Position numbers and translations under genes: made by a program. A stretch of DNA of 5,160 nucleotides, from IMG/VR virus record IMGVR_UViG_2778261666_000002, positions 1-5,160 of that record; one strand, 5' to 3'. The notes under the pieces were generated by a model, which saw only the letters and a program-made list of their open reading frames with translations, was not told the DNA's origin and did not search any database. Origin of the DNA: a virus. Its lineage: Duplodnaviria; Heunggongvirae; Uroviricota; Caudoviricetes. Below are positions 1 through 5,160 of this stretch, in pieces; positions within the stretch are counted from its first letter, which is position 1, and each line of letters opens with the position of its first letter.

Positions 1-325
1 AGTCCCAGCAAATGTTTGTCCCGTTATCGTTCAGGTTAAGGCGCGCCATTGCGTTACCTGGACTGTCTATCCATTTTTTGAGGTATAGTTCGCAATACGC
101 ATCCTCAACACCTGCTGTCCTGTGAGTTGAGCGGAGTTTTCTCCCAAATATAGCTCCGCTAGTTGGCAATACCTGCTGATACCATGAAGCAGACCAGTCA
201 CCAACGATTTCATCTTTGCTGTCTACATATAATTTTGTTGCGTAGCTTCCTTGATCGTTTTTTAATTTGCTAACGTCGGATTTTAGCGTTTTGATGTCAT
301 CAGGAATTACTGTCGATGTAGCCAT
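1..325 (-). CDS. Hypothetical protein, N-terminal 108 codons only (3' end beyond window start); unknown function
   Basis: ATG at 325..323 preceded by GAGGAAG (the orf93 stop TGA 337..335 lies inside this SD; 9-nt spacing). Hand translation MATSTVIPDDIKTLKSDVSKLKNDQGSYATKLYVDSKDEIVGDWSASWYQQVLPTSGAIFGRKLRSTHRTAGVEDAYCELYLKKWIDSPGNAMARLNLNDNGTNICWD has no stop down to position 1. Absent from the ORF track only because it has no in-window stop. Confidence 0.5.
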   Translation of the reverse strand, partial: MATSTVIPDDIKTLKSDVSKLKNDQGSYATKLYVDSKDEIVGDWSASWYQQVLPTSGAIFGRKLRSTHRTAGVEDAYCELYLKKWIDSPGNAMARLNLNDNGTNICWD

Positions 326-334
326 TTTTCTTCC

Positions 335-616
335 TCACATCCAGCCACGAAGTTGATGCTCAACAGCAACCACGTATTCATCGAATAATGACGATATTTG
401 CGAATCATTAATGATGCGCACGTTTACAAAATATCCGTCTTCCTTAACACATACCGGTTCGCCATCTTCAGTCAGTTCTCCGGTTTCTTTGTACACGTTA
501 CCTATCACGTCAATAAGAATATCATCCTGCATCGACTCGTCATCATAATAGCCAATACTCTCCATAAAGGCCGAAAAGTCGGCCCTGTCGGCAAATTTGA
601 GTGTTAAATCTTTCAT
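335..616 (-). CDS. Hypothetical small acidic protein (93 aa), start overlapping the stf stop; possible tail-fibre accessory or chaperone, function unknown
   Basis: ATG 616..614 overlaps stf TAA 618..616 (TAATG). GGGGGAG lies about 8 nt upstream. About 21 Asp/Glu against about 7 Lys/Arg. No similarity I can recognise to the lambda Tfa / T4 gp38 family. The only competing ORF is a shorter antisense one. Confidence 0.6.
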   Translation of the reverse strand: MKDLTLKFADRADFSAFMESIGYYDDESMQDDILIDVIGNVYKETGELTEDGEPVCVKEDGYFVNVRIINDSQISSLFDEYVVAVEHQLRGWM

Positions 617-2991
617 TAGATTGACTCCCCCACCTGAGCATCAGTCAATGCCTTGTGCCATATTCTGAAATTCCTGACATGACCAAATAAATGACGTAAC
701 CCGGCTGTAGTCTGGCCTCCAATACGGATAATTGCAGTGTTCTGAATATAGGACCATGTGGTTTTTGTTTCGCTGGATATACGCCCGTTACTTACTGAGC
801 ACGTAGACTGATCTGACTTTACACGCATCCCCATAACCATTTTTTCAAGCAATGCGTTTTCGTTTACCCGTCTGTTAGCTCCTCCAATATCGCAATAAGG
901 AAATCCGTCGTAATCTGTTGAACGACCGAAGCCAAGAATAATAGCCGCTCCGGTTTGATGACCGCCGGTATCAAAAACACGTGGCGCTGCATTTGGCGTT
1001 TTATACCAGTTCTTATGTACCTCACAAAGAACCGTAAAAGGAAGATTATAAAGATTATTCTTAATTGGAACTGTAACTATATCGCTTGCGCGGGTCGCCG
1101 CCGTCGTTCCTGATATAATAAAAGATGATACACAAGGCCCATTTTCTACTTGTGGGGTGGCCAGATAAATATAGTCACCAGATACGGTTGCCCCGCCCTG
1201 CTTAGGAGAATACTGTATCTGAGAACCTATTTTTAACTCCCCATCAATTGCCTGAATTGTTGCCTCTGCAAAAATCCATCCGGTAGCTTCGTCCTTTCTG
1301 ACTCTCGCTGTAATCCTTGAGGCAGCGCCGCCTGTCATATTAATTTCAAGCGTTTGTGTATCAATATATGCATCACCAAGAAAAGTTGTTGCGCTACCGT
1401 CATATTTATCAAACCGGATACGCAACCTTACCTGCAGTTCTGTTTTAAAACGACATGAGGTTGTCACGTATTTATTATCGCCTGAGACATCAACTGACTT
1501 TGTTGCAGCAATTGATGCCATATTAATGGCTGAGGTTTGCCCAATCAGAGAATCGTTACAGACAAACTTTCCATAGGTAAAACCAAAACTATCCGTCCCG
1601 GTTTCGGGAACATCCATATTTGACGATCGCCCCCAACTGGCAGGGTTTTCCGAATTGAGCATGTAGTTCGTTCTTTGCCCCTCAATAAGCAGGCCATCAC
1701 GTTCAAACCGTGGCTCGTCAATGGCAGCCTCTGTCAGCACACCAGATTTATTAATATAGGTTGCTTTCGATGCGCGTTTAAACTTTACAACCTTATCGCC
1801 AGGCATCGTTATTTCATCATCACCAATAACAATCTTTTTATATGACGGCGAAAAGCCCGTAATCATATCCAGCGAATCGTTAAACGGTATCCACACATCG
1901 GGAAGCGGCTGCAAAACTTGTTTATACGGCTCCGCAGCCTGGCTTGCATACTCTCTGGCTGCGTCTTCACTTTCTTTAGCTGCCGTCTGGCTTGCAGCGG
2001 ATGCTTTCGCCGAGTTCGCAGCCGCTGTTTCGCTTGTCTTTGCATTGGTTTCACTGGTTTTTGCTGCTTTTTGACTGTTGGCTGATGCAGTGGCAGAAGC
2101 CGCCGCCGCGCTTGCAGAACCAGCTGCGGCACTCTCGCTTTGGGCCGCTGCATCCTGACTGTTTTTCGCCGCAGTTTCGCTGGCTTTGGCATTCGTTTCG
2201 CTGGTCTTCGCTGCCGTCTGGCTGGACTTTGCGTTAGTTTCGCTCGTCTTCGCTGCTTTCTGGCTGTTAGCCGCAGCAGTTGCTGAGCCAGCAGCTGAAG
2301 TCGCAGAACCGGCTGCCGCGCTCTCGCTTTGGGCTGCTGCAGCCTGGCTGTTTTTTGCCGCAGTTTCACTGGCTTTGGCATTCGTTTCGCTGGTTTTCGC
2401 TGCCGTCTGGCTGGACTTTGCGTTAGTTTCACTCGTCTTTGCGGCTGTCTCGCTATTTTTCGCGTTGGTTTCTGATTTTTTGGCTGCTGTCGCGGAGTTT
2501 GCCGATGCAGTCTGTGAGGTCGCTGCCGCCTGTGCGCTGTTAGCTGCATTCGTTTCTGAGGTTTTCGCCGCGTTCTTCGATGATGCCGCTGCAGTTTCGG
2601 ATTTCTTTGCCGCCGCTGCGCTCTGAGAGGCGGCTTCGGCGTTGCGTGCCGCTTCTTCCACCATTTCCTCAAAACGGCGCAATGCCTCCGGCATGACATC
2701 ATCTTCCGTCATGGCACCGAGAAAATCATTCAGCGTACCTGGTCTGGAACCTTCATAGACGGTAATGGTCCCGGCATGTGAAGGCGGAAAACCTTCAACC
2801 AGCAGGGTGACGCTGTACTGGCCATACTCAACATCCATGCTGTAACGTCCGGCTTCATCCGGATTTTCAGAAGCCACCGTGTTCACCAGTACCGTGGTGC
2901 TGTTACGCTTTGCCTTCAGTTGAATAGTGCAGTTCTGTATTGGTTTTCCCGCACCATCTTTCAGCACACCTGAGATTTTTACTGCTGCCAT
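616..2991 (-). CDS. stf: Side tail fibre protein: lambda-Stf-like N-terminal domain, A/S/T/K-rich heptad-repeat shaft, C-terminal LamG/concanavalin-like jelly-roll (putative receptor-binding) domain
   Basis: N-terminus MAAVKISGVLKDGAGKPIQNCTIQLKAKRNSTTV…GRYSMDVEYGQYSV…GFPPSHAGTITVYE matches the lambda Stf N-terminus as recalled. Likely start is ATG 2991..2989, preceded by GGAG (TTTTTTGTGGAGTGGATATG); the ORF track's GTG at 2997 sits inside that SD. Stop TAA at 618..616. C-terminal end …IRIGGQTTAGLRHLFGHVRNFRIWHKALTDAQVGESI resembles the conserved LamG_3 terminal motif. Confidence 0.85.
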   Translation of the reverse strand: MAAVKISGVLKDGAGKPIQNCTIQLKAKRNSTTVLVNTVASENPDEAGRYSMDVEYGQYSVTLLVEGFPPSHAGTITVYEGSRPGTLNDFLGAMTEDDVMPEALRRFEEMVEEAARNAEAASQSAAAAKKSETAAASSKNAAKTSETNAANSAQAAATSQTASANSATAAKKSETNAKNSETAAKTSETNAKSSQTAAKTSETNAKASETAAKNSQAAAAQSESAAAGSATSAAGSATAAANSQKAAKTSETNAKSSQTAAKTSETNAKASETAAKNSQDAAAQSESAAAGSASAAAASATASANSQKAAKTSETNAKTSETAAANSAKASAASQTAAKESEDAAREYASQAAEPYKQVLQPLPDVWIPFNDSLDMITGFSPSYKKIVIGDDEITMPGDKVVKFKRASKATYINKSGVLTEAAIDEPRFERDGLLIEGQRTNYMLNSENPASWGRSSNMDVPETGTDSFGFTYGKFVCNDSLIGQTSAINMASIAATKSVDVSGDNKYVTTSCRFKTELQVRLRIRFDKYDGSATTFLGDAYIDTQTLEINMTGGAASRITARVRKDEATGWIFAEATIQAIDGELKIGSQIQYSPKQGGATVSGDYIYLATPQVENGPCVSSFIISGTTAATRASDIVTVPIKNNLYNLPFTVLCEVHKNWYKTPNAAPRVFDTGGHQTGAAIILGFGRSTDYDGFPYCDIGGANRRVNENALLEKMVMGMRVKSDQSTCSVSNGRISSETKTTWSYIQNTAIIRIGGQTTAGLRHLFGHVRNFRIWHKALTDAQVGESI
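2068..2445 (-). repeat. Two tandem 189-bp units (63 codons each) inside the stf shaft-coding region, embedded in a wider heptad-periodic region (about 1930-2650)
   Basis: 2211-2250 and 2400-2439 are near-identical at a 189-bp offset. Protein copies are residues 185-247 and 248-310 (AAKTSETNAKSSQTAAKTSETNAKASETAAKNSQ… twice), followed by a degenerate partial third copy. Confidence 0.85.
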
Positions 2992-3001
2992 ATCCACTCC
3001 A

Positions 3002-3029
3002 CAAAAAAGCCCGCCAGAATCTGCGGGCT
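3002..3029 (-). terminator. Putative rho-independent terminator after lom (minus-strand RNA: AGCCCGC-agauucug-GCGGGCU followed by UUUUUUGU), overlapping the stf ribosome-binding region
   Basis: 7-bp inverted repeat at + strand 3008-3014 / 3023-3029 with an 8-nt loop. A6 run at 3003-3008 gives a U-tract on the minus strand only. Confidence 0.55.
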
Positions 3030-3055
3030 GTCATAACACTGTGTTACCTGGCTAA

Positions 3056-3655
3056 TCAGAATTTATAACCGACACCCACGATGAAACCGTCAGTGCGCCA
3101 GTCGCCACTGCCGGAACCTTCATAAGCAATATCAATGGCCACGGATTCGGTCGGGTTAAACTGCACGCCAGCCCCCCACGCCAGAGACGTGTTGCTGTGG
3201 CGACCGCCATCACTCCCGGTCAGCACATCGTGCGTTTTCCCCTTGCTGTCAGTTACGCGGAGATAATCCCCGGAGAACGTCGAAACACGGCTGCAAGCCA
3301 CACCTGCCATCGCATAAGCACTGAACCATTCATTCACGCGCACAGACGGCCCCGCCATCATGCTGAACCAGCGGTTACGCACTGAATCTTCATGCCAGCG
3401 GGTATCGCTGTAATGCGTTTTTTGCTCATCTTTGGCATTGGCATAACTGAATGACGTCACCAGCCCCAGCGTGTCCATAAATTCATAACGGTATTTCACG
3501 TTAATGCCCTTCAGGTCATCACTGCCTGGCATATCAGTATGGGTCTGAAGATACCCGGCGCTTAGTGTGGACTGATGCTCTGCTGCGCTCGCTGGCGTAC
3601 CAGCGGCAACCAGCCAGACTACTGCGGACAGAATAACAGCACATAATTTACGCAT
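3056..3655 (-). CDS. lom: Lom/Ail/PagC/OmpX-family outer-membrane beta-barrel protein (lambda Lom homologue), 199 aa
   Basis: N-terminal signal peptide MRKLCAVILSAVVWLVAAGTPASA^AE (A-x-A cleavage site). Internal GINVKYRYE and SAYAMAGVA motifs and C-terminal IAYEGSGSGDWRTDGFIVGVGYKF with terminal Phe, matching lambda Lom as I recall it. Position directly after J is the canonical lom position. Confidence 0.93.
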   Translation of the reverse strand: MRKLCAVILSAVVWLVAAGTPASAAEHQSTLSAGYLQTHTDMPGSDDLKGINVKYRYEFMDTLGLVTSFSYANAKDEQKTHYSDTRWHEDSVRNRWFSMMAGPSVRVNEWFSAYAMAGVACSRVSTFSGDYLRVTDSKGKTHDVLTGSDGGRHSNTSLAWGAGVQFNPTESVAIDIAYEGSGSGDWRTDGFIVGVGYKF

Positions 3656-3660
3656 AATTA

Positions 3661-3666
3661 CCTCTC
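3661..3666 (-). promoter_or_regulatory. Shine-Dalgarno GAGAGG, 5 nt upstream of the lom ATG
   Basis: Reverse complement of 3656-3670 is AAGCGAGAGGTAATT, immediately followed by ATG (3655..3653). Confidence 0.6.
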
Positions 3667-3674
3667 GCTTTTCT

Positions 3675-3704
3675 GCAATAAAAAAGGCGTCATTTCTGAC
3701 GCCC
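3675..3704 (-). terminator. Putative rho-independent terminator directly after the J stop (minus-strand RNA: GGCGUCA-gaaa-UGACGCC followed by UUUUUUAUU)
   Basis: Perfect 7-bp inverted repeat at + strand 3686-3692 / 3697-3703 with a 4-nt loop. A-run at 3681-3685 on the + strand gives a U-tract only for minus-strand transcription. Confidence 0.6.
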
Positions 3705-3722
3705 GTATTGGGGTTATAAAAT

Positions 3723-5160
3723 TCAGCTGATACTGATGCCTGCGGTGGCTTTCTTCATCACCACAACCAGCAAATCGCTGATACTTGCTGTGGGATACCA
3801 GTCATTTACCAGCCATGCTGACACCGAAAACTCCAGCGTCATGTGACCGTGACCGGCAGGCATATCAATAACGCCACTGTAAATCAGCGTATTATCCAGC
3901 GCGGTACGGTTATAAATTTCAGCACCGTTTTTCCGCACTATCAGACGGCATGAGGAGTAAATATCAGTATGCTCTCTCTCATGTTTAGCGCCGCTGAATG
4001 CCACCGCCGGAATAACAATCTGCCGGTCAAACGGCTGATCGTCATAAATCCTGACGGTAATGGTCCCTGATGGCCACCGTTCCGGTGCACGGGAGTCCCG
4101 GGGGAAAGCTTTGCCCACTGTTTTAACGAGATCGCCTTCAATCTGGTTCGCGGACAGTTTTCCCAGAACCCGGCAGTTCTCGTTAATCGTGACGTTGTTG
4201 AGCGACCCGGAGTTCGCATTCACGTTACCGCTGATATCGGCATTTTTCGCCGTCAGCCGCCCGTCCGGTGTCAGGGAAAATGCCGGAGGATTACCGCCGC
4301 TGGTAATGGTGGGAGCCGTCAGATATTTCAGGAACACTTCGTTCATGAATATCTGATCGCCCTGACCAACAAACATCGGCCTTGTGTTGCCATTCGCAGG
4401 ATTAACCATCGCAATCCTGTCCGCCGCCAGCAGCACCTGACTCTGCATACCGTCAGGAGTATTCTCAATACCGGCACCAATACCCGCGATATAAAGGCGT
4501 CCGTCCTGCATCTGCTGCAGCTTCACAGCCCACATGCTGTTCAGGTTATTATTTGTATCAACCTGAACCTTCTGTATCTGCTGAATTGCCGCACTCTGGT
4601 CTTCCAGTTTCTTATTGACGGTCTGCGTGATTTCATTGCTGACATCCGTAATGGACGTCCTGATTTCAGCCAGGTCAGGCGCAAGCTGACCGTTATCAAT
4701 CTGCGTCCACAGCTCCTGAGCCAGATGGCTTTTCCCTATCTCGCCTTTGAAAAAATCCAGATAGCCGGATGCATCATCACTCGGCTGGCCAACAGCCTCC
4801 ACAAATGCCGATTTGCCAACGGTGTTCACACTGCGGATGTAAAAATAATAATCATGGCCCGGTTTGATATTGATACTGGCGGCTATCCAGTACAGCGCCG
4901 TACCAAGATAGCGGGCTGTGGTTTCAACCTGCCTGATATCGGTAATCCGCTTTTCCGAGAACCAGAACTCAAACTGTACCGTCGGGTCATAAACCGCAAG
5001 ATGCGGCGTGGCGGTTATCTGAAAATAGCCCGGCGTCAGCTCAATCCTCGACGGTGCTGCCGGTGCGGCAATCCGGAACGATACCGACGCCGGATCGCCC
5101 TGCTGCCCCCACGCATTTACCGCCCGGACTGTCAGCCTGTAGTTCCCCAGCGCCAGTTGC
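3723..5160 (-). CDS. J: Host-specificity / central tail fibre protein J, C-terminal about 479 codons; 5' end lies beyond the window. TGA stop at 3725..3723.
   Basis: Hand translation of the minus-strand frame from 5159 down to 3723 is uninterrupted (…[41 protein letters not shown]…[23 protein letters not shown]…[31 protein letters not shown]…). It matches lambda J as I recall it, including the MPAG…KK…GISI-type C-terminus. The ORF track's 368-aa call simply begins at the first in-frame GTG (4829); the frame stays open upstream of it. Confidence 0.9.

Follow-up and report, generated by a model that had tools for sequence, protein, structure and literature searches.

A short tail-fibre gene behind stf and orf93 in a lambdoid prophage: probable third gene of a widespread side-fibre module

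Introduction

In K1F endosialidase, T5 pb1 and GA-1 gp12, the Peptidase_S74 domain (PF13884) aids trimerisation of the polypeptide and then self-cleaves. As a chaperone the domain acts in cis, that is, on the polypeptide of which it is itself a part, as in endoNF and T5 pb1.

The lateral fibres of siphoviruses may consist, as pointed out by the authors of the BASEL study, either of one large polypeptide or of two or more proteins. Their AlphaFold-Multimer model of phage Bas32 (IrisVonRoten) has gp24, the distal "T-shaped" receptor-binding protein, seated on gp22, a proximal fibre with a galectin-like domain at its end (bioRxiv 10.1101/2024.09.12.612763). A genetic precedent is the branched LtfA/LtfB fibre of phage DT57C (PMC4728585). 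According to the reports on this fibre, LtfB shows no homology to tail proteins, has an N-terminus resembling phiEco32 gp15 and is inferred to be attached via LtfA, and LtfA and LtfB each add a host specificity (PMC4728585; PMC10713586).

The DNA considered here (the window) is a stretch of 5,160 nucleotides from a tailed virus of the Caudoviricetes (IMG/VR record IMGVR_UViG_2778261666_000002, positions 1 to 5,160). At its left edge there is an open reading frame on the minus strand (positions 1–325) which had been left unassigned in the original prediction made from the sequence alone. The explanation that we favour, and in which as a whole we have good confidence, is that this frame is the start of a short tail-fibre gene, the third gene of a stf-orf93-fibre side-fibre module.

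Gene organization of the window

Every gene of the window is carried by the minus strand. Read in the direction of transcription, these are J (3723–5160; its C-terminal 479 codons as obtained by frame reading, open to the right edge), lom (3056–3655 in the list of open reading frames), stf for the long side tail fibre (616–2997; PF08400, NF048003, phrog_1419), orf93 for a small conserved protein (335–616; phrog_1361, a family of no known function) and the 5′ end of the short tail-fibre gene (1–325; 108 codons plus 1 nt). The list of open reading frames shows J only at 3723–4829, and an interruption of this gene was therefore considered; it was rejected, since the frame is open to the right edge. 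Also rejected was the possibility that stf is a pseudogene, as it is labelled by RefSeq in the related locus of Escherichia coli 7/2 (L001): its reading frame is intact. Stf, orf93, lom and the C-terminal part of J are all intact in the window.

The stop codon of stf and the start codon of orf93 share one base (TAATG, position 616). The TGA of orf93 (337–335, minus strand) overlaps the Shine-Dalgarno sequence GAGGA of the fibre gene (336–332), which is separated by a 6-nt spacer from the ATG at 325–323. From there 108 sense codons reach position 2 without the frame being closed at the window edge, in agreement with the original prediction that the window edge cuts the gene. A consensus scan of the minus strand from stf to the left edge turned up neither promoter-like nor terminator-like sites. 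On this strand the closest terminator-like hairpin, a stem-loop with a run of T between lom and stf (3029–3008, found by scanning the strand), lies upstream of stf and appears to mark the 5′ limit of the stf-orf93-fibre unit; as a predicted terminator it is presumably read through by late antitermination. The same element is found upstream in L001 (5672–5693), in which a second terminator-like hairpin directly follows the stop codon of the fibre gene. Stf, orf93 and the short-fibre gene are a single transcription and translation unit. Their translational linkage had been proposed from the beginning and is borne out by the TAATG overlap, the position of GAGGA over the orf93 stop and the lack of an internal terminator-like site.

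The stf gene has 793 codons when counted from a GTG, the ATG two codons further into the gene being the likely start. Its product has a lambda-type N-terminal attachment domain (PF08400, residues 5–134, E = 7e-67), a shaft of Ala-rich repeats, a match to NF048003 at residues 437–637 and a lectin-like C-terminal domain ending ...RNFRIWHKALTDAQ; PF13884 is not among its matches in the Pfam search. Homologues of orf93 occupy the equivalent position in lambdoid, T1-like, 9g-like and T5-like loci, always 3′ of a long-fibre gene with the same type of C-terminus. A tblastn search detected the small protein in 183 phage records, in each of them next to, or overlapping with, a gene annotated as a fibre gene, and a small gene of the window's type is present in about 990 of the 5426 complete E. 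coli genomes. Comparison of the orf93-family profile with PDB and Pfam revealed no relative. Within the module, orf93 would serve either in assembly or as an adaptor. Of these genes phage 21 possesses stf, the small one and orf97 and lacks the third fibre gene; orf93 is therefore not solely an adaptor for the short fibre.

The complete gene and its product

Megablast with positions 1–700 of the window as query gave matches in 1108 E. coli records and 13 phage records. The locus of E. coli 7/2 (L001) is 99.9% identical to these 700 nt, and the phages 2G7b, HannyBb, Tritos and PhiR63_1 are 99.3–99.6% identical. Extension of the frame to the left, which had been suggested as a check, was thus possible from loci of 99.3–99.9% identity: the full gene, recovered from L001 (8376–9416), has 1041 nt and encodes 346 amino acids, 238 codons lying beyond the left edge of the window. 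Since the window holds only codons 1–108, all tests of the full-length protein were run on the L001 gene, which is 99.7% identical to positions 1–325 and has the same 108 residues.

The open reading frame is a real gene and not a chance frame, because phages 2G7b, Tritos, HannyBb and PhiR63_1 encode the visible 108 residues with 100% identity and because 429 of 5426 complete E. coli genomes contain the 325-nt piece (coverage ≥80%), with every copy lying within an annotated coding sequence. It is an ordinary, already annotated gene of a known kind, that of a short tail fibre of 346 residues. The RefSeq entry for the full protein is WP_001314683.1 ("tail fiber domain-containing protein"), and gp24 of phage 2G7b, annotated as "tail fiber protein", is the same gene. 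By its profile matches the full protein is assigned to a tail-fibre family: phrog_4563 (tail fibre) is matched over residues 1–346 of the 346-position profile with E = 2.6e-220, and the fragment in the window alone matches it over residues 1–108 with E = 1.6e-55. The gene can consequently no longer be called unassigned; a clear match of the whole protein to a routine tail-fibre family, which the original prediction had named as evidence against itself, exists in phrog_4563. Among the options that it listed was, however, also a second fibre component, and this one is correct.

Many tail-fibre PHROGs of greater length have distal ends that match residues ~130–346. The last 120 residues are a Peptidase_S74 intramolecular chaperone domain with a Ser/Lys dyad: PF13884 is matched at residues 227–278 with 52.8 bits (cut-off 22), and the dyad is contained in S227-D-R-D-L-K232, in which S227, D228, L231 and K232 are invariant in 57 homologues. 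This stretch aligns with SSDRRIK of PDB 6f45. The i/i+5 spacing of serine and lysine is a trait of the self-cleaving domain in K1F endosialidase and in MYRF. When compared with PDB, the family profile matched the S16 long tail fibre in its chaperone domain (6f45, 2e-8), MYRF in its autoprocessing domain (7dc3, 1e-3) and, with residues 165–215, the repeats of T4 gp34 (4uxe and 5nxf, about 1e-5). The AlphaFold2 (AF2) monomer model of the full protein is of moderate confidence (pLDDT 67). Searches of Pfam, NCBIfam and PHROG with orf93 and with the fibre protein found no Tfa family.

Anatomy of the visible N-terminal part

The fragment of 108 residues alone matches no Pfam or NCBIfam model, and searches for homologues with it yield only partial proteins. 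In a phmmer search of 1.84 billion representative proteins there were 11 matches, nearly all of them fragments or variants of the same family, so no deeper family came out of this search. That the original prediction could not place it has its reason in this lack of a Pfam or NCBIfam model together with the existence of just 11 relatives.

Codons 1–34 (224–325, minus strand) encode, as judged from the comparison of homologues and from AF2, an anchor motif followed by a short coiled coil. Residues 1–15, MATSTVIPDDIKTLK, fit the motif M-x-T-x-T-x-I-P-x-D-I-x-x-L-K, which is kept in homologues of 40% overall identity and also in Bas32 gp24 (MVTKTVIPTDITKLK) and Bas06 gp35 (MATVTNIPADITALK). Among the matches listed, 34 of 120 PF13884 homologues have this motif, and all 34 are proteins of about 190–370 amino acids. 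AF2 predicts a helix at residues 9–29, with I11, L14, V18 and L21 in heptad a/d positions. In homologues this stretch is longer by insertions of 7, 14, 21 or 28 residues, and the homologues give weak matches to the LPP zipper. The heptads, the insertions in multiples of seven and the zipper matches are consistent with a trimeric coiled coil. We propose that codons 1–34 encode the docking end of the fibre.

Codons 40–108 (1–208, minus strand) are the visible part of a sharply bounded, hypervariable β-domain cassette, as delimited by identity profiles and AF2. Beta strands are predicted at residues 39–128 with pLDDT 65–88. Compared with the homologue P0034, the protein is 95–100% identical at residues 1–20 and 141–346 and 30–40% identical at residues 41–100; a second, milder variable patch relative to P0034 is found at residues ~181–220, just ahead of the predicted cleavage site. 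At the DNA level the identity between L001 and L014 drops from 95–100% to 48–60% over gene nucleotides ~130–370 and then returns to 92–100%. Many matches in other E. coli genomes are 98–100% identical up to gene nucleotide 44 or 106, after which the sequences diverge. The cassette (codons ~40–125) is probably the specificity domain that binds the receptor. The AF2 monomer model of residues 1–137 has a pLDDT of 63. Foldseek found nothing in PDB with this model (best E = 0.66) and found weak matches in BFVD, nearly all of which are tail fibres, including DT57C LtfA (E from 4e-3 to 0.1). These BFVD matches lend soft support to the tail-fibre reading.

The three-gene module in other phages

The order of the module is that of a long fibre of 650–810 amino acids, a small protein of 89–93 amino acids whose gene overlaps the stop codon of the long-fibre gene, and, 9–12 nt downstream of the small gene, a PF13884 fibre with the anchor motif. 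The module is present, its three genes all being homologous and their order unchanged, in lambdoid loci (L001–L004, L006, L014, L015), in the virulent Nonagvirus ESCO3 (L005), in T1-like loci (L007, L010, L012) and Bas06 KarlJaspers, and in T5-like loci (L008, L011) and Bas32 IrisVonRoten. ESCO3 is 97.9% identical to the 700 nt of the window, and over orf93 and the fibre gene its DNA identity is 93%. PF13884 was above cut-off in all five of the third-gene products tested, and the order and tight coupling are kept in all 103 evaluable IMG/VR loci. In the loci examined the fibre gene was never found apart from the long-fibre gene and the small gene. To judge from this distribution, the module moves between temperate phages and virulent ones.

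The long fibres have the last ~500–550 residues, ending ...RHLFGHVRNFRIWHKALTD, in common. At the N-terminus they vary from backbone to backbone, being of the PF08400 type in lambdoids, MAxTTKIIVQQ in T5-likes and MAIYRxGQ in T1-likes, whereas the N-terminus of the third protein is constant across backbones.

Does the short fibre travel with the type of stf, as had been asked? Its presence and its first codons do; its body does not. In 76 of 76 evaluable IMG/VR loci with a 93-aa small gene the fibre gene lies 9 nt downstream and its product starts with MA[TI]STVIP, and in 27 of 27 with an 89-aa small gene the gap is 12 nt and the start is MVTKTVIP, residues 2–4 of the anchor thus being strictly linked to the small-gene type. 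Since the genes are only 9–12 nt apart, it is conceivable that this linkage is plain physical linkage rather than co-adaptation. The bodies of the fibres fall into at least three classes, namely the cassette allele of the window (42 loci), another cassette allele (6 loci) and an unrelated body of 227–241 amino acids (28 loci), and all three are found with both small-gene types. For example, the allele of the window is paired with the 89-aa type in L105, L115, L117 and L120. In L003 and L015 the entire fibre body is replaced, and the flanks, that is, the small gene with the first 44 nt of the fibre gene on one side and the downstream orf97 on the other, are 95–97% identical. On the basis of these pairings and of L003 and L015, the third fibre gene and its first codons go with stf and orf93, and the body is exchanged independently.

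Beyond the fibre gene, related prophages carry cargo genes (orf97, a methyltransferase, OmpT, sitABCD), and in related loci tfa fragments are found further downstream.

Proposed function and alternative explanations

By analogy with other PF13884 fibres, three chains of the protein would trimerise with the help of the chaperone domain, each chain would then cleave itself at Ser227, and a mature fibre of ~226 residues would remain. It would be made up of the anchor peptide, the short trimeric coiled coil, the hypervariable β-domain at residues ~40–125 and a T4-gp34-like repeat tip at residues ~160–215. The anchor may dock on the conserved C-terminal part of Stf, on orf93 or on both; we infer this because the N-terminus of the long fibre changes with the backbone and the anchor of the short fibre stays constant. 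The strict link between anchor residues 2–4 and the small-gene type, next to freely reassorting bodies, the Bas32 model and the DT57C precedent also speak for such docking. The result would be a branched or two-segment side fibre with the short fibre as branch or as distal receptor-binding subunit. The cassette and the tip could provide one or two extra receptor specificities, probably for surface glycans, which phages would exchange by recombination.

It is tempting to go further and to regard the trio as a self-contained "plug-in" branched side fibre, with orf93 as the junction and the cassette as a second receptor site. A new N-terminal adaptor on the long fibre would then suffice to fit it to lambda-, T1-, 9g-, T5- and possibly rV5-like virions; orf93 would form the junction that holds the short fibre, and the site on the laterally presented cassette would make the 226-residue fibre bivalent. 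This extension is tentative, and we would rather bet against it than on it in all its parts.

An independent short fibre, the anchor of which sits on the tail tip or baseplate (J or its neighbours) instead of forming a branch of Stf, is unlikely but has to be taken seriously. J-like tip proteins are present in lambdoid and T1-like phages, and a tail protein with a Phage-tail_3 domain is encoded in the T5-like locus, which would allow for a common docking surface on the tail; the contact with Stf is a proposed one. Against this, the gene occurs in the loci examined only together with the long fibre and the small gene; the attachment domain of the long fibre varies with the backbone and that of the short fibre does not; and in the published Bas32 model the homologue is seated on the proximal fibre.

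That the protein is an assembly chaperone for Stf and not part of the virion is very unlikely. In its favour, Bas06 gp35, a homologue with this anchor, bears the annotation "putative lateral tail fiber chaperone", the protein described here is small, and the gene is missing from phage 21 despite an Stf of the same type. But the PF13884 domain works in cis, the mature part contains T4 gp34-like fibre repeats, and a hypervariable cassette is typical of receptor-binding parts. Moreover, a chaperone should vary along with its client, but here different bodies are combined with the same Stf and small-gene types.

It is very unlikely that in the source genome the frame breaks off shortly past the window edge and gives no more than a short non-functional peptide. 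Many E. coli prophages are defective, and a few IMG/VR loci with the allele of the window have shortened forms of 189, 90 and 227 amino acids. Most of the 42 loci with this allele, however, encode the complete protein of 345–347 amino acids, plaque-forming phages have the 108 codons with 100% identity, and stf, orf93, lom and the C-terminal part of J are undamaged. Accessory cargo for lysogenic conversion or anti-phage defence, suggested in the original prediction, is so improbable that it can be set aside. It would fit the place of the gene, which lies distally in the tail-fibre region where the late operon ends, with true cargo just beyond in related prophages. But a PADLOC-DB search of the fibre protein, orf93 and orf97 gave no match at E ≤ 0.01, a tail-fibre family fits the protein from end to end, the gene is translationally coupled to structural genes, and it is carried by strictly virulent T1-like, 9g-like and T5-like phages, which do not lysogenise.

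The favoured reading, a short fibre that belongs to the Stf side fibre, makes the frame at the left edge a routine annotated tail-fibre gene, neither cargo nor defence, within a host-range module that is very common in E. coli prophages; its value for phage biology is modest. Anyone who wishes to engineer the host range of lambda-based particles has practical cut points in the boundaries at gene nucleotides ~44, ~106 and ~130–370. What interest remains is small and lies in the module as a whole: the role of orf93, the docking of the anchor and the binding of receptors by the cassette.

Comparison with known systems

The Bas32 locus has three genes in the same order and with overlapping junctions (gp22, gp23 of 92 amino acids, gp24). 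Its gp23 is 39% identical to orf93, its gp22 has the same ...RNFRIWHKELTD lectin-like C-terminus as Stf, and its gp24 starts with MVTKTVIPTDITKLK, the same anchor motif, and ends in PF13884. Unlike the protein described here, with its 346 amino acids, Bas32 gp24 has 574 and carries a Gp12-like RBD1 and a T5-like RBD2; the middle part of our protein has no BLASTP match to gp24 at E 0.01. The N-terminus of gp22 is of the T5 LtfA type, whereas that of Stf is of the lambda PF08400 type and the locus is in a temperate lambdoid prophage. Single-chain fibres, DT571/2 LtfA among them, contain an internal stretch homologous to residues 27–100 of Bas32 gp24, whose first 26 residues are found only in phages with full-length matches, including T5-like ones with the small gene. 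This pattern of homology is consistent with a "split fibre".

DT57C and DT571/2 likewise have tandem fibre genes, and both their proteins have autocleavable PF13884 C-termini; a small intervening gene is not mentioned in the accessible parts of the reports (PMC4728585; PMC10713586). The long fibre here differs from theirs in that it has a lectin-like end in place of PF13884.

With K1F endosialidase, T5 pb1, GA-1 gp12 and the S16 tip (6f45) the short fibre shares the C-terminal PF13884 domain and a Ser...Lys dyad (i, i+5) with a long helix behind it. All of them exceed it greatly in size and are bound to the virion directly, whereas the mature part of the short fibre would comprise just ~226 residues with an anchor motif of its own, if by analogy it is cleaved in the same way.

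Finally, the locus has the same place as stf and tfa in phage lambda (J - lom - stf) and an Stf with the same PF08400 domain. It differs from lambda in that a lectin-ended Stf, orf93 and the short fibre replace the distal part of Stf and tfa.

The module in temperate and virulent phages

The module composed of the distal part of the long fibre gene stf, the small gene orf93 and the short tail-fibre gene is found not only in lambdoid loci but also in the virulent Nonagvirus Escherichia phage vB_EcoS_ESCO3 (OM386652, positions 5001-6431). ESCO3 is 97.9% identical over positions 1-700 of the window, and its orf93 and short-fibre gene show 93% DNA identity, which points to this host-range module having recently passed between temperate and virulent phages. 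The product of orf93 (335..616, minus strand) belongs to phrog_1361, a family of proteins of about 92 amino acids for which searches of Pfam and the PDB found no relative. Members are present in 183 phage records (lambdoid, Drexlerviridae, Dhillonvirus, Nonagvirus, T5-like and rV5-like), in every case encoded directly 3' of the long fibre gene and overlapping it. Invariant in the family are M1, D3, L6, F8, D36, I38, G39, G61, V64, N65, R67, R90 and W92.

The long fibre gene

The Ala-rich, SETNAK-type shaft of Stf contains a tandem duplication (2114..2454) of 189 nt (63 codons; 1.8 copies, 90% match) with sub-repeats of 21 and 42 nt, which suggests that the length of the fibre changes with repeat number. 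The C-terminal part (616..1700, minus strand) matches NCBIfam NF048003 (E 1.4e-13), the "phage head spike fiber domain" of gene transfer agents, and ends in ...RNFRIWHKALTDAQ, a motif typical of lectin domains of the LamG/concanavalin-like kind. For Bas32 gp22, the BASEL authors (bioRxiv 10.1101/2024.09.12.612763) describe the corresponding part as galectin-like. A tfa chaperone gene is absent after the distal part of stf in the window. It should be noted that in the near-identical prophage locus of E. coli 7/2 (L001) RefSeq splits stf (5710-8085) into a truncated pseudogene and a second CDS named "head spike fiber". Since the 791-codon frame runs through there without a break, this annotation is probably an artefact of the repeats.

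Regions flanking the module

On the minus strand lom lies between two hairpins that are rich in G+C and carry T-runs, one between lom and stf (3008..3029) and one between J and lom (3685..3704). Late transcription would require read-through at each of them, and lom may be an insert with independent termination.

In lambdoid loci the short-fibre gene is followed by orf97, which in E. coli 7/2 (L001:9459-9752, about 1.1 kb past the window's left edge) encodes a 97-amino-acid predicted membrane protein (phrog_1443) and is preceded by a terminator-like hairpin (9423-9437). The phage 21 copy is 95% identical; orf97 was not found in the T1-, 9g- or T5-like loci examined, and a PADLOC search gave no match. 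orf97 is a candidate for the region's first true "moron", with a possible role in superinfection exclusion or lysogenic conversion. Just past the fibre region lie the iron/manganese transporter genes sitABCD. They occupy this place near the prophage of E. coli 7/2 (L001:11565-15014) and also within the phage 21 genome (L013:5677-9126), and may therefore be cargo carried by phage. Other lambdoid loci have fragments of a lambda-type tfa gene downstream of the module (L002:10671-10969; L003:7463-7597), in one case together with the invertase gene pinQ (L015:5029-5827). These look like remnants of an older, invertible stf-tfa fibre end displaced by the present module.

The third gene of the module is not always present. 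For example, phage 21 has an orf93 homologue and no third fibre gene. In two IMG/VR loci with an 89-amino-acid type of small gene (L112 and L113), the small gene is followed only by a 32-codon ORF and not by a fibre gene with the anchor motif; here the third gene may have been deleted, as in phage 21.
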